Shown here in pieces: positions 18,901 through 38,723 of a stretch of DNA of 64,000 nucleotides. Positions within the stretch are counted from its first letter, which is position 1. The number at the start of each line of letters is the position of its first letter. Made by a program: the position numbers and the translations under genes. Origin of the DNA: Schleiferiaceae bacterium (GTDB lineage Bacteria > Bacteroidota > Bacteroidia > Flavobacteriales > Schleiferiaceae). The notes under the pieces are model-generated. The model was not told where the DNA came from and searched no databases. It saw only the letters and a list, made by a program, of their open reading frames with translations. The stretch is taken from positions 2,565,236 through 2,629,235 of the forward strand of contig OY970262.1 of NCBI GenBank assembly GCA_963715655.1, written 5' to 3'.

Positions 18901-19106
18901 GGGTAATTAAGCGTTCTAGGGATTAAAAAGATGGTGGATTTGTAGGTAAAAGGTGCTGATTTATACAGAAAGAATTTTTCTTCGTGTGGAATAGGGGGGT
19001 GTTGTTATTCAGTTAACGGGGAGCAAAGGGATGGAAGAGAATTGAATTTATAATAAAAGCCAACGAGACATCTAAATGAAACATGCTAAGGAATAAAAAT
19101 ATTCGT

Positions 19107-19188
19107 GAGGAATTGAGGAAATGAGGATTCAATCGAGAATGTTGGGAATGTTCAAATAAGTGTGTCATTTCCTCAATTCCTCATTTCC
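19107..19188. other. Long inverted repeat (~21-bp arms, ~40-nt loop) abutting the 3' end of the DUF3987 gene; terminator-like or protein-binding site
   Basis: gaggaattgaggaaatgagga ... tcatttcctcaattcctcatttcc. On the minus strand it is followed by a T-rich tract (atatttttattcc). Confidence 0.5.
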
Positions 19189-21012: not shown

Positions 21013-21040
21013 AATTTTTTTTTGGATTTAGACTAAGGAG

Positions 21041-21958
21041 TTAGTGATTAAGATATTTTGGATTTATATAGACTTCAGGATCGTGGCATAAAAAACAAGC
21101 TCTAGACACATCTTTCCCAGAGGGATCGGCTTCTAAACTGAAATTTTGTTTTAGAAAAATGGAAACTGCTTGAAAGTACTTCTCATGGGTTACCTCTTTT
21201 GTCAACTCAATTGGAATAATCCATTTAAGACCATTTCCTGAAGGAGATTTAAACAGTAGTTCGGTTTCAAATTCCTCAATCCCTAACAGTGTAGCACGTG
21301 TTTCAGATACGTTTGGTAAGTCATCAAAATCTATAGTTAAAAGGTTTGAATGGTGGATTAAACCAGCATTAGATCGTGTACTAAATAAACCGGAGAAAGT
21401 AACATAGTCCAACCCCGTTGATTTAAATTTAGAGGCTTGATTTTTCAAACTAAATGCTCTGAGCTTTCTAGTTACATCAGGGTATTTATTTCCTTTAATA
21501 AGCTCATACACCTGAAGGGTGTTAAGGGTGCTTTTTGGGGTGGTATTATGGATGGGAGCGTTATAGTAACTAAACAGCGGCATTGCTTCTCCCTTTAGTG
21601 TAGGTGGTGATAAGTTGGGTGCTACCTCTAGTATTTCAGTAAGAGGAATTCTTAAGTTCATTTCATCGTTAAGAATATTAGATAATGCATTTTCGTTATC
21701 ACCATAGTGCAGTTTAGCAAAATCAAAACAGTTACCTGCTGCAATGGAATTATCCGTATCGGAGTGCATTGCCACATTATCTACTATTTTAATTTTCAGA
21801 GATTTTTTACCATAATTAAATGGATTTCTTGTAGGCTCACAGATGGTGCCATTTAACTTTAGGACTGTTTCACACGGGTAGTACTTCCTGAGTACATGTC
21901 CATAAATATTTAACCCGTAATATGTCTGTTTTAAAATAGCGGTATTAATTTGGTTCAT
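21041..21958 (-). CDS. Primase-polymerase (AEP/BT4734-like Prim-Pol) domain protein
   Basis: The C-terminal region (LTIDFDDLPNV ... FKSPSGNGLKWIIPI ... SGKDVSRACFLCHDPEV) resembles the acidic and SxxGxGxH motifs of bifunctional primase-polymerase domains. Co-oriented and adjacent to the DUF3987 gene. Confidence 0.5.
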   Translation of the reverse strand: MNQINTAILKQTYYGLNIYGHVLRKYYPCETVLKLNGTICEPTRNPFNYGKKSLKIKIVDNVAMHSDTDNSIAAGNCFDFAKLHYGDNENALSNILNDEMNLRIPLTEILEVAPNLSPPTLKGEAMPLFSYYNAPIHNTTPKSTLNTLQVYELIKGNKYPDVTRKLRAFSLKNQASKFKSTGLDYVTFSGLFSTRSNAGLIHHSNLLTIDFDDLPNVSETRATLLGIEEFETELLFKSPSGNGLKWIIPIELTKEVTHEKYFQAVSIFLKQNFSLEADPSGKDVSRACFLCHDPEVYINPKYLNH

Positions 21959-21969
21959 AGGTAGAGGTT

Positions 21970-22239
21970 TTAAAGGTTACTGTTTTGTTGACTTTGGTCT
22001 AACATTTCATCGATATCCTTTTGACGATAGAATATTTTACCTTGAACTTTGGAAAACTTAATAGTTCCATTTTCCCTCCACGAGGCGAGGGTTCGTTGAG
22101 AAACATTTAGAAGTTTCATCAAACTAGAATTGTCGTAAATCTTACTAGGAGATTTATTTGACTTAATGTACTCGAAAATCGAATCGAGTTGCTGCTGATA
22201 ACGGGTGTACTCTTCTTTAGGTACTGCTGAAAAATTCAT
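21970..22239 (-). CDS. Excisionase-like HTH DNA-binding protein (Bacteroidetes mobile-element Xis/HTH_17 type)
   Basis: 89 aa with LMKLLNVSQRTLASWRENGTIKFSKVQGKIFYRQKDIDEML, a typical MerR/excisionase-like HTH found upstream of Prim-Pol/DUF3987 genes in Bacteroidetes integrative elements. Confidence 0.65.
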   Translation of the reverse strand: MNFSAVPKEEYTRYQQQLDSIFEYIKSNKSPSKIYDNSSLMKLLNVSQRTLASWRENGTIKFSKVQGKIFYRQKDIDEMLDQSQQNSNL

Positions 22240-22349
22240 CTTTTATTATTTTTAATGAGGGCACAAGATGAATGTGATTTTCAATAATTAGGAATTGCTA
22301 ATATCATATATGAGTGATATTAATAAAAAAAGTACTGTCTGTCAATGAT

Positions 22350-23585
22350 TTACAATTTTTTAAAAATCTCCAAAATTGTTTCCAACTCAGATCTAATTGG
22401 GCTTAGTCGGATTGTATTGTATTTAAGTTCTTGCATGTTTCCCCTATGATCTTTAAATCGAAAATTACTTGCGAAAAAAAGTACCGCCTCCTTTTGATGT
22501 TCAAAAATGTTTAAACCGTAAAATAACCTTATCAAAAGAGCGGCCTGCTTAATAGTCAAGCTTGTATTTCTAGCAGAATTAGAATTTTGAATATTTAATT
22601 CAAGCAGTCTATAAAAGACTGCAGCAGCTTTAATTCGGCAAAAATTGTTGATTTCGAAGAAATTACTTGAAGTGCTTAGCATGTTTGGATAGCTTGACTC
22701 TTCATATTTTAAAAGTTTTGGTAAATCAACTTCTGAAGTAGACAATTGGGAAAAGTATTTCTGTTTATGAACTGTAAACAAATCCTTTTGAACTTGTATA
22801 GGATTAAGATTATTTTGAATAGCTCTTTCACGACTATCAAAAAATTCTTTTTCATACCGTTCAATCAGGAATTTCACCAAGTTGGAAATATCAAAGTTCG
22901 CTTTGTAAATTGCATGTATAGGAAAGTAAACGAAGTTATCTTCATGTAAATTTAAAATCTCAACTATTGCATCCTTTGGACGCATTTCAACGATGGCTTT
23001 TAATTTTTCTAAAAATGGAAATATTCTCTGTTTAACCCAAAAATCATCAAAATTTGAAACGCTATAATTCATAAGCTGTTTCTTAAAGAAAGCTATGTTA
23101 GATTTTTCATTAAAAAGAAATGGTAAGGTTCTAATTACCTGTTTATCTATGTAGTGACTACCAAAAACGTCCCCCTGGCTATTGTAAGATTCTTGAGTGA
23201 AATTATTGTTACCACCTTTTCTCATTACATCTGCCGCAAAAACGGAAAGTAGAATAGGGTAGTCCCTATCTATCCAAGGGGTCATTCCTAAATGCACAGG
23301 CCAAACAAACCTATTGCTTGAATCATTAACCATTCCTGTAATGGTCGGATTATTATGGAGAGTGTTATTTATCTCCCAGTTTTGTAAAGATTTTAGCAAC
23401 AGAGACTTTAAACCTGTGAAATCATCAATTTTGAAACTAGTAAGATTCAATGTCCTGAGATCTTCAACGCAATTTGTGAAGTTGAAATGATTTCGGATTG
23501 CCGTATTAATATCGTCCACAAAATAGGTAAGATTATGTTTTTCAATCAATTCGTCCAGCACTGTGTCAAGCGTTTTATCATTCAT
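22350..23585 (-). CDS. Hypothetical protein (411 aa) leading the Xis/Prim-Pol/DUF3987 gene string
   Basis: Long uninterrupted ORF co-oriented with the downstream mobile-element genes. No recognisable motif. Confidence 0.45.
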   Translation of the reverse strand: MNDKTLDTVLDELIEKHNLTYFVDDINTAIRNHFNFTNCVEDLRTLNLTSFKIDDFTGLKSLLLKSLQNWEINNTLHNNPTITGMVNDSSNRFVWPVHLGMTPWIDRDYPILLSVFAADVMRKGGNNNFTQESYNSQGDVFGSHYIDKQVIRTLPFLFNEKSNIAFFKKQLMNYSVSNFDDFWVKQRIFPFLEKLKAIVEMRPKDAIVEILNLHEDNFVYFPIHAIYKANFDISNLVKFLIERYEKEFFDSRERAIQNNLNPIQVQKDLFTVHKQKYFSQLSTSEVDLPKLLKYEESSYPNMLSTSSNFFEINNFCRIKAAAVFYRLLELNIQNSNSARNTSLTIKQAALLIRLFYGLNIFEHQKEAVLFFASNFRFKDHRGNMQELKYNTIRLSPIRSELETILEIFKKL

Positions 23586-25457: not shown

Positions 25458-28400
25458 TTAGGTGTCACCTTTTCCTTCTATTGCTTTACTAATGCCCTGC
25501 AAACCTTTTGCTACAGCCTCTACTTGCTCTAATAAAACCCCCATTTCATTACCGCCCAAGCCTTGCCTTTTTTGGTTGCGCTGAAACACTTCTAATATTT
25601 CCTCCTTACGGGATTTCTCCTCAGCGCTAAGCCAGCCTTGTAATTCCTTAAACTTTAAAAAATTAAATTCAGCTCCGCTGGTTAGGGTTTGCGCTTCATT
25701 TTCATAATGTGATAACACCATTGTTTCCAATTCTTGATCATTCATTAAAGGATTCAGCTTCTCTACCAACTTATTCATATTACGGTAACTGCCCTGCAAC
25801 TGGAATGGTGGCTCCCTACGGTAAGCATCTGCTTGACCTGCACTATCAATATACTGTTGGTTTACGCTCAAAATTGCGTTTCTAACGCGTAGCATTTTTT
25901 CTAAAATGGCTAGGTAATCTTTTATCTCTTCAGGACTATGATTGCTTTCAAATGTTACACCTTCTTGTTCGCCCGTTTCAGCTATCTGTACCAGCGTGTA
26001 CACATCTTTGGCACTTTTAGTACGTAGCTTTGCTAGGATATCATTGGATGTTAAACTGTTTTCTATATAGCTCAATTCAAATGCCTTAGCCTTTCCGCCA
26101 ATTACATCTCCCAAATTGTAGGTATCGGCTCGGTTGGCCAACATATCGGGAATTTTAAATTTTTCACCACTCTCCGTATAAGGATTTCCCGCCATCACCA
26201 CGGCTACCTTTTTGCCTCTAAAGTCGTAAGTTTTACTCACCCCTTTATAAATACCTTCAACCTTTCTTTGAGCATCACAAAGTGAAATAAATTTCTGTAA
26301 AAACTCAGGATTGCAATGCTGAATATCATCTAAATAAATCATCACATTATCACCCATTTCAAAAGCTAAGTTGAGTTTTTCCAACTCTTCGCGCGCAGCA
26401 GAATTTTTAGCTGAACCTGGATCCAATGCCGTAACCTCGTGCCCAATGGCCGGCCCGTTAATTTTCATAAACACCAAACCCAAGCGGTTGGCTACGTATT
26501 CCATTAAGGTGGTTTTTCCATATCCCGGAGGTGAAACCAAGAGCAACATACCCATTAAATCCGTACGTTTTTTATCTCCGGCAGCACCCATTTGCTTGGC
26601 TAAATTATCGCCAATCATGGGTAAATACACTTCGTTTATAAGCTGATTACGCACAAAAGAACTCATTACCCTCGGCTTAAATTCACTCAAGCGTAAATCG
26701 GCTTTTGCCTTTGCCAGCAACTGTTTTTTGGTTTCTGTATATAATTTGTATCGCGGTACATCAACGGTTGAAAAATGCGCTAAGCGCAGCATAAATTTGC
26801 TAAAATGCACCGTTAATTTTCCATCAACCACCAAAGGATGGTCTCCCGCTAAACCCGAAACCTCCGCGCTAAGCATTACTTTATGCTCGGTAGGCGGTGC
26901 TATCCGTGCACTCATTAAAATAGTGGCTGCTTCTCGAATTTCTGACGCTTCAACGTTTAGCCGTTGCTCTTGCAAGAAGCTGTTTAACCAACTCATAACC
27001 AAATTCATGCGTTTTATAACATTCTCTGATTCAGCTTTTAAAACTTCCTCAAACAAACGCATATTTCGTTTCTTCTTTAAATGCGTATTAAACTCCTCCA
27101 CTAAATGCCACGCTTCCCAAGAAAAGCTAAACTCCGTTTCATATACCAAGCGCTGAAACAAATATTGCGCTGCTTCTTCGTGTAAAATTGTGGTGCTAAA
27201 AGTTGGTTGTGGCTGCACGTTAGCTATGGCCTCGCGTAATTCTAGCACCGTGTTTTCAAAACTCGTACTACCCGGAAACACCTGCACAATTTTCTTGATG
27301 TTATCAAATTGAACCTCCCATTGCGCTTTTTCCTTCTTAGGTAATAAATGCTCCCAAAATAAATAAGCTAGCACTCTCGCTTCCGCTGAAAAGCGCAATA
27401 AACCGATGGAAAAGTAAAAATCTAATAACTGCTTGAGAAGTAACGCTGCATCAAAATCATGAACACCTTTAATATAACCTTCTTCATAGCGTAAAGCCAT
27501 GCGCTGTTGTATATATTTTTGAAGCTCCTTTTGCGTAAGTTGATGAAGCGTATCTAATTCCTTTATCGCGTCATCCACTTGATTTGAAATATTTTGCGCT
27601 TCCTTAAAGAGCGCATAAGCCAAATACTCAGCTCTGTAAACAGTATCATTTTCTGAAACCAACGATTGGCTCCATACTGCTTTGGTGGTCAAAAATTCCG
27701 TATCATTAATCTGCTCAAAAAAGTTGGTACCTGTAATATGAAAAAACATATTGCTGTTACGCTGCACCATTGATAAATCAATTTCTTGCGTATTCACGTT
27801 AAAAGCATGTTGACCCAACTGAATAATATTCTCACCATCTACAAAAAGCTCTTGCTTATCTTTTAATTGTCGGCTTGCATCCTCATAGGCGGTTTTTAAT
27901 TGACTTTGCAGGTCATCTGCTTTTACAACGTCATCAATACCAAGCAATTGTTTGGTAATGTCGCGCACCTTATCTACCATTAAATCAGAGGCGTAATAGG
28001 CATTTATATCCTTCTGCTCCTTAAAATTTAATAGGCGTTTTTTAATACCACTTATAATCCGTTTTCCGGATTCATATAGCGCAACCGACTTTTTATTACG
28101 TGCCTCAACAAGTTGTATTTTTTTGGTTTCAAACGCATTATAAACCTGCTCACGCTTTTCAGTAAGTTTTGTAATAAAGTCGTCAAATTCAGAAAACTTA
28201 CCCTCCAATTCTTCCAATTGCACCATCAACTTATTCTGGTAATCTTCGCATTTTTCTGGAGAATCACTAATATCTAAATAATTGGTAAGCCCTTGGTTTA
28301 CTAGTTTTAATTGCGTATTAAACTCTGCTTCGCCCTCTTTACCTAAAAGCTCTTTTCGCTTTTTGCGTAAGGTTGCGTTAATACGATTAAACTGTGCGTA

Positions 28401-30380
28401 AATGGTAGAAATACCATCAATAATTTTGGTGGTTTCGGTAGCATCTTCAATTTTAAGATTGCTCACAATTTCAATAAGCATTTCCAAGTCTTTAGAAACC
28501 TTATTAATATTATTTGCTAGGCGATTAGCATCTACCACCTTGCTAGTTTTTTCTACCGCTTCGCTTAGTTCACTCACTTTATCTCGATAAGGTGCCAAAG
28601 CTTCTTTTTTCAACAGAAATTTTACTGTTTGCTGAGAGGTATCTTGCGTTAACTTACTTAAATCAGCTTCGTAATTTTCAATAATAGCGTTATTCATGTA
28701 GCGCAAGTCTTTGAGGGAAAGCACCTCCCCTTTTGCAGCGCGTAAATTGCTCAAGCGTTCTACAAACTCATATATCGTTTTGGCGTTTCCGCGTTTAGCT
28801 TGGCTCATAACTGCATCTGCGGCAGCGGTTACTTCACCGGCTCTTTCAGCTGTGCTGCGCTTTATGCGCACTACTTTTTCAAACTCTTCTATGGCGCTGC
28901 TTGCTGCTTGTTTTATAGCCTGCAAAGGTTCACTTAACGTAAAGGCTTCTCCGTTACCCAACCAATGGTAACTATCTAAAATTCCGGTGGAAACTTTTAC
29001 TAAATCAATATACAAATTGCTGTAGCTATCTTCTTTACGGATAAGCTTTTGCACTTCTGCAACCTCAGCCATAGCCTGTACAATCTCTTTATTACCTAAT
29101 TTATACAAATACGATTTATGCTCCACCTCCACCGTTTTGTTAGGTGAATAAAAAGGTGTTTGCCAAATTTGAATTTGATGATGTTTTTTTTGCTCTTCTT
29201 CTGATTTAAAGAAGATTAGCTCTCCTTCCTCAAACAATGAAAAACCGTTACAAATAATGGGCGTTGCTACTTCTTGATTGATAATATTGTACGGTAAAAG
29301 TGCATAAAGTCCGGTGCCTTTTTGAAAGAACACGTAAATAAAATCTTCTCCGTTTGGCGAAACAATGCGTTTCTCAAAAAGCATGTTTTCCAGCTGATTA
29401 TCAAATAATTTTACCTCGCCCGTTTGAATATAATAGCCTTTGGCGAAAATAATTCCTTGGTCATCGGGCAACAGCACGCAAGAATCTTCTAAAGCATCAA
29501 CACGCACCGCCTTTTGTATTTTTTCATTATACACGATATAGCGAAACTTCTGCTCTTTATAAGGCTTTATCTTTAACGCTATAAGATTGCCAATCAGTGC
29601 GTAATAAATTTCCGCATCATCCAGCGTTTGGTCAGCATCATCCACCGGCTCTTCATAAATTCCTTTGCCGCTGTTGGTATTGTCTTCTATTTTAATGGTT
29701 AAATCTCCACCCACGGTTTCCACAAAAAGCTTATCCTCAATAGAAATATGCGGATGTATGCCCTTGCGCTGCATCTCGCGTACTACACGCTTCCATTTAA
29801 ATTCATGTTGATTAGGGAAAATATACTCGTGGTCACTACGGTTGTCGGCATACTTTAATGTGCTATCTTTTGCTTTCCCCCACTTAAAGGTTTTGATATC
29901 TTCGGTAGTTTTACCCACCTGAAACACCATAAAAATATGACCGCCTATTTCGGCAAACTTGCTAAAACGTGTATCTCTGTAATATTTATAGAGGTTGGCA
30001 AAGTCAATTAAAAAGGCTTCATCCTGTAAAAGTGTATTTTCCTCTTTATGGAAAGTATGTGCCTTAGCATCAAAGCGATACACGCCAAAAACATCCTCTA
30101 TATGCGTTTCTGTTTTAAGGCCCATGTGTACGTTGTAGCCAAATAGAAACTGATTATTGCCCAACGCAATCATATCGCGCGCCAAACAATTATTTTCGGT
30201 AGTAACGCGCTCTGTGGCGATTAACTTGGTTTCGATGGAGCCAAAAACTTCTTTTCGCGCTGCGTTGAGTTGCTGCACACGGCTGCGTAAATCAGCGCCA
30301 TGCTTCTCTAAACGCTCACGAATGATTTCATACGTACCGGCTTCTAAAGAGGTGTTTTTTTGAGTATTGCTATCGGACAT
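25458..30380 (-). CDS. Giant (1640 aa) coiled-coil protein with an embedded AAA+ ATPase domain near the C-terminal third
   Basis: Walker A LLLVSPPGYGKTTLMEYV, Walker B VMIYLDDIQHC, and a sensor-1-like VAVVMAGNP. Long predicted coiled-coil segments lie N-terminal to the ATPase. Co-directional and directly downstream of the pspA-nfeD-flotillin genes. Confidence 0.7.
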   Translation of the reverse strand: MSDSNTQKNTSLEAGTYEIIRERLEKHGADLRSRVQQLNAARKEVFGSIETKLIATERVTTENNCLARDMIALGNNQFLFGYNVHMGLKTETHIEDVFGVYRFDAKAHTFHKEENTLLQDEAFLIDFANLYKYYRDTRFSKFAEIGGHIFMVFQVGKTTEDIKTFKWGKAKDSTLKYADNRSDHEYIFPNQHEFKWKRVVREMQRKGIHPHISIEDKLFVETVGGDLTIKIEDNTNSGKGIYEEPVDDADQTLDDAEIYYALIGNLIALKIKPYKEQKFRYIVYNEKIQKAVRVDALEDSCVLLPDDQGIIFAKGYYIQTGEVKLFDNQLENMLFEKRIVSPNGEDFIYVFFQKGTGLYALLPYNIINQEVATPIICNGFSLFEEGELIFFKSEEEQKKHHQIQIWQTPFYSPNKTVEVEHKSYLYKLGNKEIVQAMAEVAEVQKLIRKEDSYSNLYIDLVKVSTGILDSYHWLGNGEAFTLSEPLQAIKQAASSAIEEFEKVVRIKRSTAERAGEVTAAADAVMSQAKRGNAKTIYEFVERLSNLRAAKGEVLSLKDLRYMNNAIIENYEADLSKLTQDTSQQTVKFLLKKEALAPYRDKVSELSEAVEKTSKVVDANRLANNINKVSKDLEMLIEIVSNLKIEDATETTKIIDGISTIYAQFNRINATLRKKRKELLGKEGEAEFNTQLKLVNQGLTNYLDISDSPEKCEDYQNKLMVQLEELEGKFSEFDDFITKLTEKREQVYNAFETKKIQLVEARNKKSVALYESGKRIISGIKKRLLNFKEQKDINAYYASDLMVDKVRDITKQLLGIDDVVKADDLQSQLKTAYEDASRQLKDKQELFVDGENIIQLGQHAFNVNTQEIDLSMVQRNSNMFFHITGTNFFEQINDTEFLTTKAVWSQSLVSENDTVYRAEYLAYALFKEAQNISNQVDDAIKELDTLHQLTQKELQKYIQQRMALRYEEGYIKGVHDFDAALLLKQLLDFYFSIGLLRFSAEARVLAYLFWEHLLPKKEKAQWEVQFDNIKKIVQVFPGSTSFENTVLELREAIANVQPQPTFSTTILHEEAAQYLFQRLVYETEFSFSWEAWHLVEEFNTHLKKKRNMRLFEEVLKAESENVIKRMNLVMSWLNSFLQEQRLNVEASEIREAATILMSARIAPPTEHKVMLSAEVSGLAGDHPLVVDGKLTVHFSKFMLRLAHFSTVDVPRYKLYTETKKQLLAKAKADLRLSEFKPRVMSSFVRNQLINEVYLPMIGDNLAKQMGAAGDKKRTDLMGMLLLVSPPGYGKTTLMEYVANRLGLVFMKINGPAIGHEVTALDPGSAKNSAAREELEKLNLAFEMGDNVMIYLDDIQHCNPEFLQKFISLCDAQRKVEGIYKGVSKTYDFRGKKVAVVMAGNPYTESGEKFKIPDMLANRADTYNLGDVIGGKAKAFELSYIENSLTSNDILAKLRTKSAKDVYTLVQIAETGEQEGVTFESNHSPEEIKDYLAILEKMLRVRNAILSVNQQYIDSAGQADAYRREPPFQLQGSYRNMNKLVEKLNPLMNDQELETMVLSHYENEAQTLTSGAEFNFLKFKELQGWLSAEEKSRKEEILEVFQRNQKRQGLGGNEMGVLLEQVEAVAKGLQGISKAIEGKGDT

Positions 30381-30483
30381 TTTTTTGCTAGCTGTTAATC
30401 TGTTTTTTATTTGGAGGTTGCGATATTTTTAAATGACTTTCGAGTAGAGATGCATTGCAAATGAAATTAATACTAAACTTTAG

Positions 30484-30690
30484 GTTTTACAACCATGCTT
30501 CGATACACCTCGTTCCTCGGCACTCAGCATGACATCCGTTTGTCTATTAAAACCAATAAAAGCATTTTAAACATATGCACTTCATTTTAAAATTTTTAGT
30601 TTAAAACATTTTAGGGGTAAAAACCATGCTTCGATACACCTCGTACCTCGGCACTCAGCATGACATTCGTATATTAAAACCAATAAAAAA
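30484..30690. repeat. Two ~70-bp direct repeats in the flotillin-to-giant-ATPase intergenic region
   Basis: aaccatgcttcgatacacctcgt(t/a)cctcggcactcagcatgacat.cgt...ttaaaaccaataaaa occurs at ~30486 and ~30617. Each copy contains an internal catgct/agcatg stem. Confidence 0.6.
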
Positions 30691-30911
30691 AACAATGACA
30701 GCGCAACGGATTCAAACGTGTTTTCTAACGCTTCAATTTTCTTCATGGTTTTATTGCCTTATAAGAAATTATCCCACTGCGCCAAGGCGCACGAATATTT
30801 GAACGCGTCTAGTTAAAAAATCAAACTAAGAGGTAGCTCCTAAAAAAACTATAAGCTTCTCACTATTTCCCAATTCGTCATTCCAAATTCTACATTCGTC
30901 ATTTGTTTTCT

Positions 30912-33089
30912 CTAAACACTAATTCCTAAGCTACTTGCAGTTTTATTACCCATACCACTACTTTGCGCCAAACTCATTAATTGTTGTAACAAGCCTTTTT
31001 TCTCGGGATCATTAGTTTGTGCTAAAAGCCTAACTAGCAACGCGGTGATAGAAAGATTTTTAATATCCTCGCTGTCTAAGTCGCTTTCTTTAATCAAGGT
31101 TTTGATTTTATCTACCATGGAAACACCATCAGCATTGTCTAGCAACTGAGTTTTTACTTTAGAGAAAATCTCACTGTTGTTTACCGTACGGTCAAAGGCT
31201 TTACCGTTGCTAATGGCACCCACAATCTTATCAAAGAATACATTTTCTCCGCCTACAATATCAATTTTGGCCGACCTTAAAGCGGTAGCTAACACTTCGG
31301 CTTGTGCATCTGCAATAGCTTTTTGAATATTGATTTGTGCCAATTCCACTTCCTTATCTTTTAATAAGCGTAATTTAAATTCTTCATGATCTTTACCTAC
31401 ACCATCTAGTTTTTTCATAGCCGCAGCTTTACGATCAATACCTTCTGCTTCCGCATTGTATTTCTCTAAGCTTACGTGCGCTTCCGCCAATCCTTTTTCT
31501 TTATCAGCAGCAGCCTTTTTAGAAATCACCTCCGCTTCGGCTAATCCTTTTGCTTTATTTACATCTGCCGCAGCATTACCAAGTTTTAAATCTGCTTCTG
31601 CTTGAGCCAATGATTTTGCCTCAATACCTTTTGCCTCTGCCAATGCCTGATCTTCTAATACAGACGCTTCGGCTTCCCCTTGCTTTTCACGTGCTTCAGC
31701 CTTAGCCTCCATCACTTTCGCTTCAGCTAATCCGCTTGAAGCAAACCGTGCCGCTTCCGCTTCAGCTAAAGTTTTAATGGCTTCCGCTTTTTGCACCGAT
31801 GATTGTTGTTCTGCATCAGCATCAATAATTTTTTGCTTGGCCAAGAATTCAGCTGCTTGCTTAGAGGCTTCGGCACGTTTTATTTGCTGCACCAACGATG
31901 CTTCCGCTTCTTCTTCCGCTTTGGTTATTGCCACTTTTTTGCTGCGCTCTGCTCCTGCAAAGGCGCGTGTATCATTTATCCGCTCTTCCTCATCTACCAC
32001 CGTTTTTTCAATGGCTACACGCTCGCGAATTACTTCTTGAATGTTTTTCTTTTGTTCTTCTACCGCTTTTTCCTTATCAATCTGTGCTAGTGTTACAATC
32101 CGTTCACGCTCGGTGGCCTCTAACATCCTATCCTTTTCCACACGCTCCGTTTCCACAGCCTCCGTGCGTTCTTTAGATTTTGATGCCACAATAACTTGAC
32201 GCATTTTATTCTCTTCGGCCACCGCAACTTCTTCATCGGTTGCTATACGCGCACGCTCAGATTTTAATCGCTCCTCTTCATTTACCCGTTTCGTTTCTGC
32301 ATCTTCTCGCGCTACAGCATTCGCTACTTCACGTTTTTGTTTAGCTTCCGCTTCTGCTAGCTGACGCTCTAAAACCAAGATAGCCTCACGCGCTTCTACA
32401 TCCTGCTGCTTTACCGTTTTTTCTTTGTCGCGCTGAATAAAATTAGCTTTTACAGCTTCCTTGGCGGTGATTTCGGTGATCTTTTTAATACCCTCTGCAT
32501 CTAAAATATTATTAGGATCGAGAGAACTTAATGGCGTTTGTTCTAAGAAATCAATAGCCGCATCATCCAGCACATAACCATTTAAGTCGGTACCAATAAT
32601 GTTGATGATTTCTTTACGGAATTCATCACGTTGGTTGTACAAGTCAACAAACTCAAACTTTTTACCAACGGTTTTTAAGGCTTCTGAAAATTTAGCATCA
32701 AAAAGTAAGCGCAAAGCATCTTTAGAAGAAGCCCGGTTGCAACCCACTGCTTGTGCCACCTTTTTAACATCTTCTACCATTTCGTTTACACGCACAAAAA
32801 AGGCCACTTTTATATCTGCACGTAAATTGTCTTTACATACTAAGCCGTCTTTACCATCGCGTTCAATGGTTATAGTGCTCAGTGAAATATCCATTACTTC
32901 TAGCCTGTGTAAAACAGGAATGACCAGCATTCCATTAAAAGAGACTTTAATACCCCCCACACCTGTACGCACCAGCGCTTGACCTTGTGAGGTTTTATGG
33001 TAAAAACGCGAAAACATGGCAATAATGCCAAAGACCAAGACTACACCAATAACAACACTTGTTATCATTGAATTTTCAAAAATTTCCAT
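30912..33089 (-). CDS. Flotillin / SPFH (band-7) family protein, YqiK-like
   Basis: N-terminal TM helix then an SPFH domain (QALVRTGVGGIKVSFNGMLVIPVLHRLEVMDISL), followed by a long Ala/Glu/Lys-rich coiled-coil flotillin tail. Confidence 0.85.
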   Translation of the reverse strand: MEIFENSMITSVVIGVVLVFGIIAMFSRFYHKTSQGQALVRTGVGGIKVSFNGMLVIPVLHRLEVMDISLSTITIERDGKDGLVCKDNLRADIKVAFFVRVNEMVEDVKKVAQAVGCNRASSKDALRLLFDAKFSEALKTVGKKFEFVDLYNQRDEFRKEIINIIGTDLNGYVLDDAAIDFLEQTPLSSLDPNNILDAEGIKKITEITAKEAVKANFIQRDKEKTVKQQDVEAREAILVLERQLAEAEAKQKREVANAVAREDAETKRVNEEERLKSERARIATDEEVAVAEENKMRQVIVASKSKERTEAVETERVEKDRMLEATERERIVTLAQIDKEKAVEEQKKNIQEVIRERVAIEKTVVDEEERINDTRAFAGAERSKKVAITKAEEEAEASLVQQIKRAEASKQAAEFLAKQKIIDADAEQQSSVQKAEAIKTLAEAEAARFASSGLAEAKVMEAKAEAREKQGEAEASVLEDQALAEAKGIEAKSLAQAEADLKLGNAAADVNKAKGLAEAEVISKKAAADKEKGLAEAHVSLEKYNAEAEGIDRKAAAMKKLDGVGKDHEEFKLRLLKDKEVELAQINIQKAIADAQAEVLATALRSAKIDIVGGENVFFDKIVGAISNGKAFDRTVNNSEIFSKVKTQLLDNADGVSMVDKIKTLIKESDLDSEDIKNLSITALLVRLLAQTNDPEKKGLLQQLMSLAQSSGMGNKTASSLGISV

Positions 33090-33110
33090 TTTTTAATTTG
33101 GTTTAATTAG

Positions 33111-33761
33111 TTAATCTACAGAATAATATGGCTCAATAAGATATACTCCCGTTGTGCCAAGTAATTGAATGAAAAGCACATTATCTCCTTTTTTAACTTC
33201 CGTGCCTTCGCGGGTAAGGATATAAAACCGCAAAAAGGAACCTTCATAATTTACCTCCGCCATACCCTTACTATCATGCGAAGCAGAAGTAGTGACAGTA
33301 CCTACCTTCCCTATAATTTCTTTTACCTTGCTATCTTCATCAATGGTATTAAAAAATTTAACGAACGGCCAGGTTAAAAACTTAGCAATAAACAAACTCC
33401 CGATAAGGGCTGGCAAAAAGACAATAAGGCCAATAATAAAATTACTGTTACCTAAAAATCCGTTTACGTTTATACAAATTATCCAAAGTGGAAGGGTTAA
33501 AAAGCTCAACCAAATCATCACTGGAATTTTGCCCAAGTTGAAAAACAACAGCACATTGTTAATCCAAGATATATCGGCAGTAGCTGTTGCACCTGTATCC
33601 ATATCCGCATCAAGGTCGGCATCTACCTCTAGGTCAAAGTCTAAAAAGTCGGTGCCTAAAAGCCCAAAAATTACAATTATCCAATAGAGGATAATGAAGA
33701 GGAGCAATGCCGTGGGAATAACATTGGCTCCGTTAAAAATAAAATCAACAAAGTTGCCCAT
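33111..33761 (-). CDS. NfeD/YqiJ-like (DUF1449-type) membrane protein with C-terminal OB-fold
   Basis: TM helices with acidic DxD repeats (DFLDFDLEVDADLDADMD) and a C-terminal beta-rich segment (GKVGTVTT ... GMAEVNYEGSFLRFYIL) typical of NfeD partners of SPFH proteins. Confidence 0.6.
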   Translation of the reverse strand: MGNFVDFIFNGANVIPTALLLFIILYWIIVIFGLLGTDFLDFDLEVDADLDADMDTGATATADISWINNVLLFFNLGKIPVMIWLSFLTLPLWIICINVNGFLGNSNFIIGLIVFLPALIGSLFIAKFLTWPFVKFFNTIDEDSKVKEIIGKVGTVTTSASHDSKGMAEVNYEGSFLRFYILTREGTEVKKGDNVLFIQLLGTTGVYLIEPYYSVD

Positions 33762-33763
33762 GG

Positions 33764-34501
33764 CTAGGAAGAGGCATTATCCGCCCCACTATCCTTTTTA
33801 TCTAAACCCAACTTTGCTTTTAAAGCAGCTAACTCGTCCGTTGCTTTGGCATCAGCAGCACCTTCCACTGCTCGGTTTAGTTCTTCATCAATGCTTCTGC
33901 TTTCATTGGCTATATCGCCATAGCTTTCCGCTAATGCCTCCTCTTGTAATACTTTTTCCTTCATACGTTCTAGCATACTCACAGTTCCGCTTCCATCAAT
34001 TTGCGCCATTTGCTTATTGATGTTTTTTGTAGCTGAGCTTACTTTCACTCTTGCTTTAAGCGTTTTTAGCTCATTTTCATATTGGCTAATTTGGTTTTTT
34101 AAACGCTTTATGTTTGCATCCATAGTTGCAATATTTCCGTCAAATTTCTCTTTGTCTGCCTTACTACGTGAAATATCTGCTATGCTATGCTCTCTTTTTG
34201 CAAGCGCCTCAGTAGCCAGTCTGTCTGCTTCCGCTGCATCCATATCACCTTTAGCACCACGCTGCAAAATAACTACTGCTTTTTGCTGATAATCTGAAGC
34301 TTTATCCTCACTTATCTTCATATCGTTGCGAGCTCTTATGCTCAACGCTTTAATTTCTGCTAGTGCATGTAACGCCTGATCTAGGTCTGCCTTTAAATCA
34401 CGGATTCCTTGTTCCGTCATTTTTATTGGATCTTCCAATTTATCAATTGCAGAATTCGTTTCTGCTTTACCAATGGAAAAAAGTCTTTTTAAAATACTCA
34501 T
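33764..34501 (-). CDS. pspA: PspA/IM30 family protein (phage-shock protein A-like)
   Basis: 245 aa all-helical coiled-coil protein starting MSILKRLFSIGKAE ... LEDPIKMTEQGIRDLKADL, characteristic of PspA/Vipp1. Confidence 0.85.
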   Translation of the reverse strand: MSILKRLFSIGKAETNSAIDKLEDPIKMTEQGIRDLKADLDQALHALAEIKALSIRARNDMKISEDKASDYQQKAVVILQRGAKGDMDAAEADRLATEALAKREHSIADISRSKADKEKFDGNIATMDANIKRLKNQISQYENELKTLKARVKVSSATKNINKQMAQIDGSGTVSMLERMKEKVLQEEALAESYGDIANESRSIDEELNRAVEGAADAKATDELAALKAKLGLDKKDSGADNASS

Positions 34502-34534
34502 GTGTTTATTTTTTGTGGCTTGTTAGCCGATTTA

Positions 34535-34969
34535 TTAATGTTTAGAAAAAGCGATTAACTCATCTGAGTATTCGCTTAATAAGAGGCTGAGAGAATTTAA
34601 TGTTCCCTCTAACTCGTTTAAATCTAAGTTCTCTAGTTGTAGCGTATCTCTAAAAATTACGCGAGAACCGTGTTCATCTAATGCAAATGCACCATGTACA
34701 ATATCTCTATTCTTAATCAGTAAATTTTTAAAAACCTCCATCGATTCCGATTTTAATTCAAATAAGAACTGCTCCATTACTAAAATGGGGTCAGCGCAGG
34801 CTATTACTAAATTTCTAATACCTGTGTTTTCACTTTCCACCACAAACACCGCTTCTTCGGCATTTTCATGTGTGATGTTAAACTCCAATTCCATTAAAAA
34901 TTCTTTAACTTTTTCGAAATGATTTGTCATACTTTGGTTTTTGAATACTGTAATAATTAAGTTTTGCAC
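34535..34969 (-). CDS. Small cytoplasmic protein, YjfI/YbjN-like (DUF2170-type), first gene of the pspA operon
   Basis: 144 aa acidic protein immediately upstream of pspA, the same order as E. coli yjfI-yjfJ. The assignment rests on synteny and size only. Confidence 0.35.
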   Translation of the reverse strand: MQNLIITVFKNQSMTNHFEKVKEFLMELEFNITHENAEEAVFVVESENTGIRNLVIACADPILVMEQFLFELKSESMEVFKNLLIKNRDIVHGAFALDEHGSRVIFRDTLQLENLDLNELEGTLNSLSLLLSEYSDELIAFSKH

Positions 34970-35141
34970 TGTTTACACAAGTAATTTAGCCTGTGTGAAA
35001 AGTGCTTCAATATAGAAATATCTGTTCACTTTGGCGGAGGATTTGGGCGATCACTAAATTCTTTCATGTTATTTTTATTAGTTTTACCCCGCTAAAATAC
35101 TAATAAATTTAGTTTAGCCAAAAATATTAGCATTTAATTTT

Positions 35142-35924
35142 ATGAGTACTTCTAAAATTGGTCACAACATTAAAAAAATACGTGGTGTTAAAAACCTTAA
35201 TCAAAGCGACTTTGCGGAGCTTTTTGATTTGAAGCGTGCTAGTATTGGCGCTTACGAAGAAGGTAGAGCGGAACCTAAAGTTTCTACTATTATACAAATA
35301 GCCAATCATTTTGGCATTAGCGTAGATGAATTATTAACCAAAGCCCTTTCAGTAAACGATTTAATTCGCTTTGACATTATTAAAGAGGATTTAAAAGCAC
35401 AAACCAAGCATAACTTATTACCAACCAAAGATTGGGTGGAACTGATACCTATACCCTTGTTGACTACTGAGTATGAAAAGGATTATTTAGACGGAAAGTT
35501 GAAAACAGAAACACTGCCTTATCTGCAGCTACCCTTAGCGAAAGGTAGAATGTACTTAGCGTTTTTCATAAATGATAATGCCATGCAAATAGCGCATGGC
35601 GGTGTACAGCAAGGGGATATACTAGTTGGTTGCAAACCTGAAAAATTTGATTTGGCTAAAGCTGAAATTGGCATGATGTATATATTTCAACTAAAATCTG
35701 AAATTATATACCGAAAATTGAATGTAAAAAACCTAAGCTCAGTAACGCTGACTGCCGATAATCCAAATGTATATTCTAAAACTCTAAAACATTCGGAAAT
35801 AAAAGATATTTGGCAAGTATGCCTACGCGTTACCAATAATATTAGCAATCAAAACTTGATGGAAAATAAATTGATGCAGCTTGAGAAAGAAATTGAACAA
35901 CTAAAAAGGATGAGCCGCTCGTGA
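35142..35924 (+). CDS. XRE-family HTH regulator with C-terminal S24/LexA-like domain (CI-repressor-like architecture)
   Basis: N-terminal HTH_3 (IKKIRGVKNLNQSDFAELFDLKRASIGAYEEGRAEPKVSTIIQIANHFGISVDELL). The C-terminal segment is S24-like (AFFINDNAMQIAHGGVQQGDILVG ... IYRKL), but the usual catalytic Ser is not evident: NDNAM replaces GDSM. Confidence 0.7.
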   Translation: MSTSKIGHNIKKIRGVKNLNQSDFAELFDLKRASIGAYEEGRAEPKVSTIIQIANHFGISVDELLTKALSVNDLIRFDIIKEDLKAQTKHNLLPTKDWVELIPIPLLTTEYEKDYLDGKLKTETLPYLQLPLAKGRMYLAFFINDNAMQIAHGGVQQGDILVGCKPEKFDLAKAEIGMMYIFQLKSEIIYRKLNVKNLSSVTLTADNPNVYSKTLKHSEIKDIWQVCLRVTNNISNQNLMENKLMQLEKEIEQLKRMSRS

Positions 35925-36607
35925 AAAACACCTTAATAGAAATTGAGAGATTGCTTAGTGCCGCCTTTGCAGATTTTGTGCTGAGCAGAAAAGAACGTAG
36001 CGACTTGCGTGAAGCGTTAAGCTCCATAACGTTAGAGTTGCGCGAAAAACAATTGCTGTGGCACTTTTGCAAAAGCTTAGCAGAAAAATCTGAAACCTTA
36101 AGTACCTACTCATCCATAGAATGGATGTACGCTTGTGGCAAACTATTGCAACAAACGGCAGAAACTCCCGATGCTGAAACGCAGGTTTATTTTTCACCGG
36201 GCACCGCTTGCCAAACGGCTATATGCAACGCCATCCGCTTTGCGAAAAGCAAAATAGACATTTGCGTTTTTACCATTAGTGACAATACAATTACCGATGA
36301 ACTTTTGCAAGCACACCGCTTAGGCAAGCATATTCGCATAATAACGGATAATGATAAAACCGAAGATCACGGATCTGATATTGATTTATTAGCGAATGCT
36401 GGTTTACAGGTAAGGGAAGACCGCACGGATGCGCACATGCATCATAAATTTGCCTTATTTGATAACGAAAAGTTACTTACCGGCAGTTATAATTGGACCA
36501 GATCTGCCATGACACATAATTTGGAAAATATTCTCCTTACAGATGATGAAAATGCCATAGGCCCATTTAAAAAGGAATTTAAACGTTTATGGGAAATGTT
36601 GAAGTAG
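35921..36607 (+). CDS. Phospholipase D-family (HKD) nuclease, Nuc-like, single HKD motif
   Basis: HKD signature HMHHKFALFDNEKLLTGSYNWTRSA. The GTG start overlaps the stop of the upstream regulator (cgtga). Confidence 0.7.
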   Translation: MKNTLIEIERLLSAAFADFVLSRKERSDLREALSSITLELREKQLLWHFCKSLAEKSETLSTYSSIEWMYACGKLLQQTAETPDAETQVYFSPGTACQTAICNAIRFAKSKIDICVFTISDNTITDELLQAHRLGKHIRIITDNDKTEDHGSDIDLLANAGLQVREDRTDAHMHHKFALFDNEKLLTGSYNWTRSAMTHNLENILLTDDENAIGPFKKEFKRLWEMLK

Positions 36608-36710: not shown

Positions 36711-37634
36711 ATGCAATCTACTTTTAGTTTAGCCATACACGGAGGTGCCGGTACTATTTTACCCGCAGAACTTACTCCTGAAAAAGAGCAGGCGTACAAA
36801 AGCGCCTTAGCGGATGCTTTACAAGTGGGTAACGATGCTTTAAAAGCCGGCAAATCTGCCATAGATGCTGTGGAACTTACCGTAAATAGTTTAGAAAACT
36901 GTCCGCTTTTTAATGCCGGAAAAGGTGCTGTTTTTACCGCCACCGGTGGTTTTGAATTAGATGCAGCCATTATGAACGGTAAAGATTTATCAGCCGGAGC
37001 CGTGGCCAGTGTTAAAAATATTGCCAACCCAATTTCTTTGGCGCGTAAAGTTTTTGAACACACTCAGCACGTATTGTTAGGTGGTGAGGGTGCTTTAGCT
37101 TTTGCTAAAAGCATCGGTATTGAGCAACAGCCAGACGCCTATTTTTTTACACAACAGCGTTATGATCAATGGCAGGAATTAAAAGGAACGGACACCGTTT
37201 CCTTAGACCATGGTTCATCTAAACCCATTGGTACCGTGGGCGCTGTGGCTTGTGATATGCACGGAAATGTAGCAGCCGCAACCTCAACAGGGGGCATGAC
37301 GAACAAAAAATTTGGTCGCATTGGCGATACCCCTTTAATCGGTTCTGGTGCCTATGCCAATAACAGAACCTGTGCAGTTTCTACCACCGGACATGGCGAA
37401 TATTTTATGCGCTCGGTAGTAGCGTATGATGTTTCCTGCCTTATGGAATATAAAGGTTTATCGCTTGAAGAAGCTTGTAATTACGTAGTAAAGGATAAGT
37501 TGGTAAAATTTGGTGGTGAAGGTGGTTTAATTGCCGTGGATGCCAAAGGAAATATCTGTTTACCTTTTAACTCGGAAGGGATGTACCGAGGATTTATCCG
37601 TGAAAACGGAAAAATTGAAACCGCTATTTTTTAA
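36711..37634 (+). CDS. iaaA: Isoaspartyl dipeptidase / plant-type asparaginase (Ntn hydrolase)
   Basis: LAIHGGAGTI at the N-terminus and the autoproteolytic GTVGAVA segment. Adjacent to the cyanophycin genes, consistent with cleavage of beta-Asp-Arg dipeptides. Confidence 0.8.
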   Translation: MQSTFSLAIHGGAGTILPAELTPEKEQAYKSALADALQVGNDALKAGKSAIDAVELTVNSLENCPLFNAGKGAVFTATGGFELDAAIMNGKDLSAGAVASVKNIANPISLARKVFEHTQHVLLGGEGALAFAKSIGIEQQPDAYFFTQQRYDQWQELKGTDTVSLDHGSSKPIGTVGAVACDMHGNVAAATSTGGMTNKKFGRIGDTPLIGSGAYANNRTCAVSTTGHGEYFMRSVVAYDVSCLMEYKGLSLEEACNYVVKDKLVKFGGEGGLIAVDAKGNICLPFNSEGMYRGFIRENGKIETAIF

Positions 37635-37641
37635 ACCACCA

Positions 37642-38544
37642 TTAAACGGTTTCTAACGCAGCTGCCGTAAAATTTTTGGTTTCCAAATTATACTTATCTC
37701 CTTTTGCCAAGGCGTGCACCACCATATTTGCTAAACTTATGGGCGCATTTTTAGGCAAGCTGCTAATGTTATTATGCGTTAATTTCTGACCATCAAAAAT
37801 TAACACCAAACCCGAACCAATTACTTCCAAGTGTTTATTTTCGGTTACCAATACCGCGGTATCTTCACCCAAACCAACACCTAAACATTTAGGATTGGCA
37901 GCTACAGCTTGCGATAATCTGCCAAAGCGACCACGAGTAATAAAATGAGAATCAATAATTACGTTAGGCAATAGATTTAAACCCTTCATAATTTTTACAC
38001 CGCCTTTTAAAAGCGCTTCTACCCTGCCACCACGGGCAATCATTACATGAGACATAGCCATGGCTCCCGCACTTGTACCCGCTATAATCAATCCATCATT
38101 AGCATAGCGGTTTTGTAAAATCTCTAAAAATTCTGAACCTCTAAAAAAGTTTGATAAACGTGCTTGATTTCCACCGGTAAACATCACACCATCGGCTGAA
38201 GATAAGCGGGTTAAGTAGTTTTTTTCGTCAGCCTCTTCTTTACTCTTAATGTGCATAAACTGCACATTAGTACAACCTAATTTATCAAAAGCATGTGCAT
38301 AACTTTCTGCCACCTCCAGAGGTATGCTAGATGCCGAAGTGATTACTTCAATATGGGCATCTATTCCACCGCTTTCTGCCACTACGCGCGCTAAAATACC
38401 TAATTCAAAAAAATCGCGATCTAGTTTTGCAATTACCTTTTGGGTATTCTCTCCGCGCTTATCTCCTTCTTCAAACTTATACTCGTTTCCGCCTATGGAA
38501 ATTAATTTACCTAATGGCATAGTGGTTTTTTTATTGGGGCGCAA
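37642..38544 (-). CDS. cphB: Cyanophycinase (peptidase S51)
   Basis: Motifs ISIGGNE and GTSAGAMAMS (catalytic Ser), ~300 aa. Confidence 0.8.
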   Translation of the reverse strand: MRPNKKTTMPLGKLISIGGNEYKFEEGDKRGENTQKVIAKLDRDFFELGILARVVAESGGIDAHIEVITSASSIPLEVAESYAHAFDKLGCTNVQFMHIKSKEEADEKNYLTRLSSADGVMFTGGNQARLSNFFRGSEFLEILQNRYANDGLIIAGTSAGAMAMSHVMIARGGRVEALLKGGVKIMKGLNLLPNVIIDSHFITRGRFGRLSQAVAANPKCLGVGLGEDTAVLVTENKHLEVIGSGLVLIFDGQKLTHNNISSLPKNAPISLANMVVHALAKGDKYNLETKNFTAAALETV

Positions 38545-38723
38545 AAGTAAGTATTGTGGCGGTTATTAGAATGATAAAGTTAACGTTAGCTTAACAAAGC
38601 AATACACTTTAAACAGCTAAAAATCCTTCGCAACAATAAAAATTAATCAAAATGTGGAGGCTTTAAAGTTATTTCTATCTTAAACGCGCTAAACAGGTAC
38701 ATAAAAACAGCAAAACAAACCGT

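Follow-up and report, generated by a model that had tools for sequence, protein, structure and literature searches.

Why does a gene for a very large ATPase stand behind genes for membrane scaffold proteins, and what might such an ATPase do there? We address this question for a locus of a Schleiferiaceae bacterium (GTDB lineage Bacteria; Bacteroidota; Bacteroidia; Flavobacteriales; Schleiferiaceae), contained in a stretch of 64,000 nucleotides (nt) of contig OY970262.1 (assembly GCA_963715655.1, positions 2,565,236 to 2,629,235 of the forward strand). This whole stretch is called the window, and coordinates are positions within it. Five minus-strand open reading frames (ORFs) lie head to tail at 34535-34969, 33764-34501, 33111-33761, 30912-33089, and 25458-30380. 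They encode, in this order, a CesT/Tir-superfamily chaperone-like protein, PspA, a short NfeD-like membrane protein, a flotillin-like SPFH protein, and a 1640 amino acid AAA+ ATPase of the DUF3686 family. The gaps between the first four are 33, 2, and 21 nt, and a 531-nt spacer precedes the ATPase gene. The number, sizes, order, common orientation, and small gaps of the genes are as given in a first-pass annotation made from the sequence alone. Comparison with related loci indicates that the evolutionary core is the trio of YqiJ/NfeD-like membrane protein, flotillin-like SPFH protein, and giant, apparently cytoplasmic ATPase, and that PspA is an addition.

Conservation of the locus across phyla

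A locus scan with one genome per species gave at least 579 confirmed ATPase loci, and 80 were kept. The flanks of these were searched first with the window proteins and afterwards with hit-derived profiles, and neighbors were counted in the 61 loci whose upstream flank measured 6 kb or more. Bacteroidota, Planctomycetota, Verrucomicrobiota, Desulfobacterota, Bacillota, and Kiritimatiellota are represented among these 61. In all phyla sampled, and in 58 of the loci, the ATPase gene has a flotillin-like gene just upstream on the same strand (in locus L015 it was found by tblastn only); 54 loci have a YqiJ-like gene immediately upstream of the SPFH gene, again in all phyla. PspA was found in 21 loci, all from Bacteroidota (21 of the 28 from this phylum). 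The CesT-like gene and a divergent helix-turn-helix (HTH) gene are present in 19 loci each, also in Bacteroidota only, and a phospholipase D (PLD)-family gene occurs sporadically (5/61). Because flotillin and YqiJ genes are nearly always present and PspA is confined to one phylum, these counts indicate that the near-constant unit is YqiJ-flotillin-ATPase, with PspA a lineage-specific addition. The first-pass annotation had tied the giant gene to the whole set of scaffold genes, which is borne out for the flotillin and NfeD-like genes and, for PspA, within Bacteroidota only. It had also reasoned that homologs found mostly without SPFH neighbors would speak against such a link, and we see the opposite.

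In pairwise comparisons over 52 loci, the ATPase averages 50% identity, the flotillin 54%, and the YqiJ-like protein 29%. The divergence of these proteins is correlated (r = 0.62 for ATPase-flotillin and 0.76 for ATPase-YqiJ), which fits co-inheritance, although shared phylogeny alone would give some correlation too. The closest of the 80 kept loci is in an Owenweeksia metagenome-assembled genome (ATPase 71% and flotillin 84% identical). The ATPase family is large: more than 6000 clusters at 90% identity match it. The N-terminal 700 amino acids have 966 relatives among 1.84 billion 50%-identity representatives, many of them 1600-1900 amino acids long, with identity down to about 26%. A cluster look-up by exact sequence returned entries for the window proteins, without names.

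Domain architecture of the giant ATPase

The ATPase (25458..30380, minus strand) has Pfam matches to DUF3686 (2.9e-187), DUF7902 (9.4e-28), AAA (5.3e-7), and AAA_5 (8.4e-7). The DUF3686 (PF12458) match spans residues 30-472 and profile positions 1-448 of 448, with 623 bits against a cutoff of 25. DUF7902 matches residues 593-677, and AAA and AAA_5 match 1279-1404. The AAA+ module is therefore not the only clear motif, as had been supposed, and the N-terminal 1000 amino acids, which had been predicted as coiled coil, are not coiled coil throughout. The AlphaFold model of residues 1-700 (pLDDT 78.9) has a long helix at 14-46 and about 30 beta-strands, in roughly seven four-stranded groups, at 52-407, a putative beta-propeller-like domain (29160..30227, minus strand). 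Helical bundles at 424-699 resemble spectrin repeats and include the DUF7902 region (28284..29111, minus strand). A PDB sequence search with the N-terminal 1000 amino acids gave no useful match.

The AAA+ core lies at residues 1279-1420 (26121..26546, minus strand), with a Walker A motif (GYGKT) at 1286 and a Walker B motif (YLDD) at 1349-1352. The motifs GYGKT, YLDDIQH, and VVMAGNP noted in the first pass do exist, at residues 1286, 1349, and 1394 and not within 1100-1270. In the model, a beta-hairpin (1373-1386) stands ahead of the likely sensor-1 residue N1399, and R1417 is a candidate Arg finger. The protein has the set of features that defines an AAA+ ATPase, namely Walker A, Walker B, a polar sensor-1 residue, an Arg finger, and an alpha/beta core with a helical lid. 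The predicted architecture as a whole is a helix, a beta-propeller-like domain, spectrin-like rods, the AAA+ module, and a C-terminal helical domain. Walker A, the DD of Walker B, N1399, R1417, and a C-terminal QGSYR are invariant in 30 homologs down to 28% identity, which suggests that the ATPase site is under selection. No transmembrane (TM) segment is predicted, and the protein is probably cytoplasmic.

The flotillin-like and NfeD-like proteins

The gene upstream of the spacer encodes a 725 amino acid flotillin-like SPFH protein (30912..33089, minus strand). Scanned alone, its N-terminal 243 amino acids match Band_7 (PF01145) at residues 32-235 with E 1.5e-11 and 45.1 bits (cutoff 23.6), which places the protein among SPFH/band-7 proteins and agrees with the original flotillin call at the level of that superfamily. 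A TM segment (1-31) is followed by the SPFH/band-7 domain, an Ala/Glu-rich coiled-coil rod of about 330 amino acids (21% Ala, 18% Glu), and a C-terminal domain that is conserved. Neither the rod nor the C-terminus matched a Pfam family. The full-length protein has no Pfam match and no useful PDB sequence match. Among solved SPFH chains the best hit is QmcA (E 0.0013), over the rod only, and is not convincing. The protein is 47% identical over its full length to the gammaproteobacterial counterpart from a Moraxellaceae locus (L083), and flotillin-like SPFH protein appears to be a fair name for it.

Full-length flotillins of this clade (window 30912-33089; L082 6546-8846; L083 6863-8911) have no Pfam match and carry the precomputed annotation "-". 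Our guess is that the low-complexity Ala/Glu-rich rod suppresses the SPFH score in full-length scans. Automatic annotation misses these flotillins, and the link between ATPase and flotillin is therefore hidden.

The gene before the flotillin gene (33111..33761, minus strand) encodes a 216 amino acid membrane protein with several hydrophobic segments, an acidic D-rich loop, and a C-terminal soluble domain. Its YqiJ_N match is weak (E 0.004; 17.8 bits, under the cutoff of 23). Of 23 orthologs, nine match YqiJ_N (best 3.6e-8) and one matches NfeD, and an orthologue profile gives a weak match to the YuaF structure 2k14 (E 0.041, residues 145-202). We assign the protein with moderate confidence to the YqiJ/YuaF type, short NfeD-like proteins, in line with the first-pass call.

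PspA and its putative chaperone

The 245 amino acid PspA/IM30 protein (33764..34501, minus strand), of the bacterial ESCRT-III superfamily, had been recognized in the first pass and matches Pfam PspA_IM30 (PF04012) with E 2.1e-37 and 129.3 bits (cutoff 33.9), over profile positions 1-217 of 220. Its score against the NCBIfam equivalog model of E. coli PspA is 45 bits, far under the cutoff of 243, and it is therefore a member of the PspA/IM30 family and not an orthologue of E. coli PspA.

The first gene (34535..34969, minus strand), separated from the PspA gene by 33 nt, encodes a CesT/Tir-superfamily chaperone-like protein (Pfam CesT_Tir_1 3e-57, YbjN 1.2e-5). It had been called yjfI-like, which is right in a loose sense only. 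The family is CesT_Tir_1, and DUF2170 (PF09938, the YjfI family) is not among the Pfam matches at E<=0.01. Counted from the first GTG (34969), the product has 144 amino acids. Most of the 19 orthologs have 130-133 and begin at a Met equivalent to the ATG at 34927, so this ATG is probably the true start, which gives 130 amino acids.

Divergent regulator, PLD gene, and intergenic region

Facing away from the five genes is a gene for a 260 amino acid regulator (35142..35924, plus strand) with an XRE-type HTH (HTH_3 3.8e-11), a C-terminal S24/LexA-like barrel, and a short end helix. A divergent orthologue is found in 19 of the 21 PspA-containing Bacteroidota loci. In the alignment, the S24-like domain lacks the catalytic Ser (NDNAM in the window, NLEM or GAEM in orthologs), and every aligned member shown has Ala or Glu in its place. 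With this residue replaced, the barrel is probably no protease, and self-cleavage appears unlikely.

The next gene overlaps the end of the regulator gene by 4 nt and encodes a 228 amino acid, single-HKD PLD-superfamily protein (35921..36607, plus strand; PLDc_2 2.6e-31) with HxKxxxxD in its translation. Orthologs follow the HTH gene in L002, L025, and L028 (two Owenweeksia loci and one other). Others lie beyond the ATPase gene, on the far side in L010, L075, and L079 and directly downstream in L082 (Burkholderiales). The PLD gene is a sporadic accessory component, and it and the HTH regulator both appear to belong to the system. By these comparisons, the probable Bacteroidota additions to the core are the upstream CesT-like chaperone and PspA, the divergent HTH regulator, and, in this lineage, the PLD-family gene.

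The divergent intergenic region (34970..35141) is the presumed promoter/operator of both transcription units. A single Bacteroidetes-type -7 motif (TAnnTTTG) was found on the operon strand of the two intergenic regions scanned, at 35126 (minus).

The spacer between the flotillin and ATPase genes

The spacer (30381..30911, 531 nt) is not conserved and contains a local direct duplication (30479-30561 and 30610-30688) of about 83 nt, with copies 87-90% identical; none would be expected by chance. It had been described as a 530-bp leader with a duplicated element of about 70 bp. The length and the duplication are essentially as described, and the term leader fits poorly, as nothing similar is seen in the spacers of the 80 related loci. 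An Rfam scan of the whole window gave no match, the spacer included. On its operon strand we found no sigma-70-like promoter above the shuffle expectation, no TAnnTTTG, and no intrinsic terminator. The possibility of a structured leader was dropped, as the duplicated element folds no better than shuffles (z = 0.64). A dispersed REP-like repeat was also rejected: the window has just two copies, two scans of metagenome contigs gave no exact match, and the 80 related loci contain nothing similar. The repeat is a local duplication.

In 69 loci, the median distance from the flotillin gene to the ATPase gene is 146 nt, with 41 loci at or below 224 nt and 28 above 300 nt. The long gaps have no sequence in common, and gene order is kept. 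The junction looks like an insertion hot spot inside the operon. Since conservation, an Rfam match, a special fold, a promoter, and a terminator were all lacking, we read the spacer in the window as a lineage-specific insertion or duplication at an insertion-tolerant junction and not as a regulatory leader.

In nine loci (L012, L038, L007, L008, L027, L034, L067, L078, and L073) the spacer holds unrelated small ORFs. These look like IS200/RAYT-type transposases, a DUF559/VSR-like endonuclease, GxxExxY-type proteins, and a toxin-antitoxin-like pair. The window spacer has a minus-strand ORF of 54 codons with an ATG start (MKKIEALENTF..., 30582-30746) that crosses the first repeat copy. It is probably not a gene, because an indel puts the second copy out of frame. 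An independent Logan contig with the same ATPase gene (L001) starts at spacer position 387, beside the second 83-nt copy; assemblers may break at the repeat.

Relation to described systems

The neighborhood has been described before, by Ravi, Anantharaman, Aravind, Gennaro, and colleagues (mSystems 2024, 9:e00847-23; preprint 2020; PMC11237479). They report a CesT/Tir-PspA pair with three further genes, for YqiJ/YuaF, band-7/flotillin, and beta-propeller/coiled-coil/AAA+ proteins. Some proteobacterial versions have a PLD/HKD gene, and shortened operons without PspA are widespread (PMC11237479). Their Table S3 entry for Dokdonia donghaensis (ANH61663.1) has a divergent gene denoted "<-cHTH+Protease" (PMC11237479), and the window agrees with this entry gene for gene. 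Genes, order, divergent regulator, occasional PLD/HKD gene, and phylum are all alike, and our ATPase models agree with the published domain call of N-terminal beta-propeller, coiled coil, and C-terminal AAA+. We see no architectural difference; the window has the duplicated spacer, and its PLD gene follows the regulator instead of the ATPase gene. Every feature of the published neighborhood was found, the YqiJ call being weak for the single sequence and backed by orthologs, and the window locus almost certainly belongs to the published module. The locus is thus no new kind of system, and the value of the window is confirmatory. The suggestion that the ATPase lies outside the described Psp and YqiJK systems is wrong in the light of that work, which is computational only.

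Pseudomonas aeruginosa appears to carry a proteobacterial version. PA3732-PA3727 form the "biofilm-associated cluster" bacABCDEF, in which BacA is a DUF2170/CesT-like protein with a crystal structure, BacB is PspA, BacC is a short NfeD, and BacD is the SPFH protein PaFlo3, followed by BacE and BacF. The genes bacA to bacF are on one transcript by reverse transcription PCR, BacB-F go up 6-13-fold when bacA is mutated, and a sigma-54 site was proposed (PMC10948618). Mutants of bacA and bacB show defects in biofilm formation, rhamnolipid production, and virulence, and the pa3731 (bacB) mutant also in swarming. PA3728 (BacE) is listed as "ATPase" (PMC8190622), and PA3728-PA3732 belong to a set of 17 genes with raised expression in every phage-infected P. 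aeruginosa sample (PMC12041424), which makes induction by phage or envelope stress plausible.

Several observations bear on whether BacE is a DUF3686 protein. A published primer in PA14_16190 encodes PKNNCIA, and 13 family members have NNCIA within residues 62-97, mostly within 62-77. The length of the amplicon, 557 bp, agrees with the distance calculated from the flotillin motif GG-x-x-x-FF. The Moraxellaceae locus L083 (Pseudomonadales) has the order DUF2170-PspA-139 amino acid ORF-YqiJ-flotillin-DUF3686. A search for PA3728 seeded with a proteobacterial homologue gave Beta- and Gammaproteobacteria with no named P. aeruginosa entry, and motif searches gave no exact match.

The bac cluster and the window share a CesT-superfamily chaperone, PspA, a short NfeD, an SPFH protein, and then an ATPase (BacE, taken as DUF3686). 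They differ in the chaperone (DUF2170/YjfI versus CesT_Tir_1) and in regulation (a proposed sigma-54 promoter versus a divergent, putative HTH repressor). BLASTP between window 33764-34969 and L083 4525-5673 found no significant likeness of PspA (E 0.018) or of the chaperone (DUF2170; E 0.03). Because these unrelated pairs flank an orthologous flotillin-ATPase core, the comparison points to separate recruitment or replacement of the PspA-chaperone pair in Bacteroidota and in the gammaproteobacterial locus.

Other known systems share parts of the locus. In SPFH-NfeD operons (E. coli yqiJK and qmcA-ybbJ, B. subtilis yuaF-floT, and S. aureus floA-nfeD) the NfeD-type gene is directly upstream of the SPFH gene, as in the window, and the SPFH proteins are alike in having an N-terminal anchor, a band-7 domain, and a coiled-coil rod. 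Tan et al. 2024 are reported to have found a cage of 26 heterodimers for QmcA-YbbJ. The descriptions of these operons that we examined mention no ATPase gene, and the window flotillin is longer (725 amino acids). The classical Psp system (E. coli pspF-pspABCDE) also has a PspA/IM30 protein, and like it the window locus is plausibly an envelope-stress response; PspB, PspC, and a PspF-type enhancer-binding protein are not among the cluster genes, and the window PspA is under the equivalog cutoff.

Proposed function and alternatives

In our preferred reading, the locus is the Bacteroidota copy of the described envelope-stress module, in which the ATPase would remodel a flotillin/NfeD scaffold and PspA would be an added repair arm; we consider the chances of this evenly balanced. 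The specific scaffold-remodeling role of the ATPase is held more tentatively, somewhat below that. The structural neighbors of the ATPase include many protein-remodeling AAA+ proteins (ClpB/Skd3, NorQ, CbbQ, p97, and Lon among them). SPFH cages pair with AAA+ machines, for example HflK/C with FtsH. PspA is in the ESCRT-III superfamily, and ESCRT-III needs an AAA+ disassemblase. In HflK/C-FtsH, other SPFH-AAA+ pairs, and ESCRT-III-Vps4, a scaffold or polymer is combined with a ring ATPase, which is a functional analogy to the proposed mechanism. The window ATPase differs from FtsH and Vps4 in having no protease domain, TM segment, or MIT domain, and its homology to them is that of the generic AAA+ fold. 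The hairpin before sensor 1 and the DD Walker B are also unlike what is known of FtsH and Vps4.

In the working that we infer, the HTH protein would repress the operon until the membrane is damaged. On the cytoplasmic side of the membrane, flotillin and the NfeD-like protein would make up a scaffold or a cage like that solved for QmcA-YbbJ. The ATPase would assemble into a ring and make physical contact with flotillin, docking on the scaffold by its propeller and rods, and would spend ATP on remodeling: scaffold assembly, opening, recycling, or release of held contents. PspA, restrained by the chaperone as BacA restrains the bac genes, would polymerize on damaged membrane as the repair arm. 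More speculative is a general form of this proposal, in which the DUF3686 ATPase is a dedicated motor that opens, disassembles, or recycles flotillin/NfeD cages, is triggered by phage or envelope damage, and has had PspA recruited separately in each phylum; we regard this as possible rather than probable.

Several points weigh against this proposal. The second acidic residue of Walker B is Asp instead of the usual Glu (the invariant DD), and hydrolysis could be slow or regulatory. Three of the 61 loci (L022, L032, and L044) have the ATPase gene with no flotillin gene nearby. In the window, the flotillin and ATPase genes are 531 nt apart, which leaves their co-transcription uncertain. The place of BacE in the DUF3686 family is itself no more than probable, judged from the primer motif, the amplicon distance, the label "ATPase", and the order in L083. 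P. aeruginosa SPFH mutants, PaFlo3/BacD included, show slight phenotypes only (PMC13086221). We found experiments on the ATPase itself in no organism.

If instead the ATPase acted mainly on PspA polymers, as Vps4 acts, flotillin would be a platform only. The ESCRT-III relationship of PspA would suit this, PspA and ATPase are in one operon both here and in P. aeruginosa, and Ravi et al. discuss PspA-AAA+ links (PMC11237479). In 40 of the 61 loci, however, including all from the five non-Bacteroidota phyla, ATPase and flotillin occur with no PspA within 10 kb, and the PspA partners of Bacteroidota show no sequence relationship to those of Proteobacteria, in contrast to the conserved ATPase. We detected no MIT-like domain in the ATPase. 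The classical AAA clade (Vps4, FtsH, p97) is not known to have a hairpin before sensor 1 and has a second region of homology with Arg fingers. Sequence matches to p97 cover the P-loop region only, and the hairpin at 1373-1386, which is in a part of the model with modest confidence, argues against membership in this clade. A Vps4-like role appears quite unlikely. A MoxR-like chaperone or quality-control factor for client membrane proteins in flotillin microdomains, with the scaffold not its substrate, is unlikely too, if less so. It would agree with the AAA_5 match and the JGI label "MoxR-like ATPase". NorQ and CbbQ, both of the MoxR family, are among the best structural matches. S. aureus FloA-NfeD is reported to stabilize unfolded proteins (PMC11222466). 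Yet the known MoxR proteins have about 300-500 amino acids, whereas this protein has 1640 with a propeller and rods and its likeness is confined to the AAA+ core. A VWA-domain partner, the usual MoxR companion, was not seen in the scanned genes in or beside the cluster, and no client is known.

An anti-phage defense or abortive-infection system that damages or seals membranes, with the PLD-family enzyme as a possible effector, would account for the induction of the P. aeruginosa counterpart by phage and for the CI-like HTH regulator and PLD-superfamily gene at the locus. The identity of about 50% across phyla suggests horizontal spread, small genes of mobile type lie in the spacer of other genomes, and the window has a mobile element at a distance of 2 kb. 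But the five proteins have no credible match in PADLOC-DB 2.0.0 (marginal coiled-coil/P-loop hits, best E 2.8e-4, the rest >1e-3), a PLD gene is in 5 of 61 loci only, and all five products are of scaffold, chaperone, or ATPase families with no recognizable toxic effector domain. Phage induction of PspA is a general envelope-stress response. We consider this reading improbable, and nothing supports the abortive machine suggested in the first pass. That the DNA repair label is right and the membrane-gene neighbors incidental is hardly credible. Family members are named "DNA repair ATPase" (NCBI), "MoxR-like ATPase" (JGI), or hypothetical, the Pfam DUF3686 description agrees with the NCBI name, and there are weak partial RuvB matches. 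These matches are confined to the P-loop region around Walker A (about 24 bits against a cutoff of 282), a Pfam scan of the ATPase gave no DNA-binding or nuclease domain, and the ATPase gene follows the flotillin gene in 95% of loci. A literature search gave no paper on DUF3686, nor on "DNA repair ATPase" together with flotillin. The name has no support that we found in the literature, and the genomic context argues against it. In this genome the 531-nt insertion might also uncouple the ATPase gene from the upstream operon and leave it to its own expression, in view of its length against the median of 146 nt and a duplicated element not conserved elsewhere. The operon strand of the spacer has no consensus promoter or intrinsic terminator that we could find, and 28 of 69 loci tolerate spacers above 300 nt, some with whole inserted genes, with gene order kept; uncoupling is very improbable.

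Surroundings of the locus

About 2 kb beyond the ATPase gene is a probable integrated mobile element (15523-23585). It encodes an rve-family integrase (15523-16398), a DUF3987/PriCT primase-like protein (19189-21012), a BT4734-like protein (21041-21958), an HTH_17 excisionase-like protein (21970-22239), and a 411 amino acid protein with no Pfam match (22350-23585). In this region, GC content drops to 0.316 at 22-24 kb of the window. Beside the element, 8833-11106 encodes a 757 amino acid fused N6-adenine DNA methyltransferase with an HSDR_N-type N-terminus (N6_Mtase, Eco57I, MmeI-like), possibly a type IIG/IIL restriction-modification enzyme. Two neighboring large ORFs at 2056-8188 (1516 and 529 amino acids, TTG starts) end in C-terminal sorting domains of type IX secretion and otherwise lack Pfam matches at E<=1e-5.

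On the other side of the locus are cyanophycin genes (36711-41351), which encode an isoaspartyl peptidase-like protein (Asparaginase_2), an S51 peptidase, and cyanophycin synthetase. Cyanophycin genes also flank L020 (16413-20011) and L082 (1-2643), one of which is from Burkholderiales. A link to the locus was rejected as probable coincidence, as the genes were not seen in the other approximately 80 loci.

Significance for flotillin biology

Because it stands beside flotillin in at least six phyla, at about 50% identity and with its catalytic motifs kept, the giant ATPase is a strong candidate for the missing energy-consuming partner of bacterial flotillins. Comparative genomics of 2020-2024 had already pointed out the ATPase as a flotillin partner. 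Our census adds that the near-constant association is the flotillin-ATPase pair and not PspA, that the PspA-chaperone pairs of Bacteroidota and of a gammaproteobacterial locus are unrelated in sequence, and that the name "DNA repair ATPase" is without support that we could find. P. aeruginosa apparently offers a tractable copy, and a pa3728 transposon mutant is available. If the ATPase is the motor of the cage, it would be functionally equivalent to Vps4, which serves ESCRT-III, or to FtsH within HflK/C, and the loading and opening of SPFH cages would become directly testable in bacteria.

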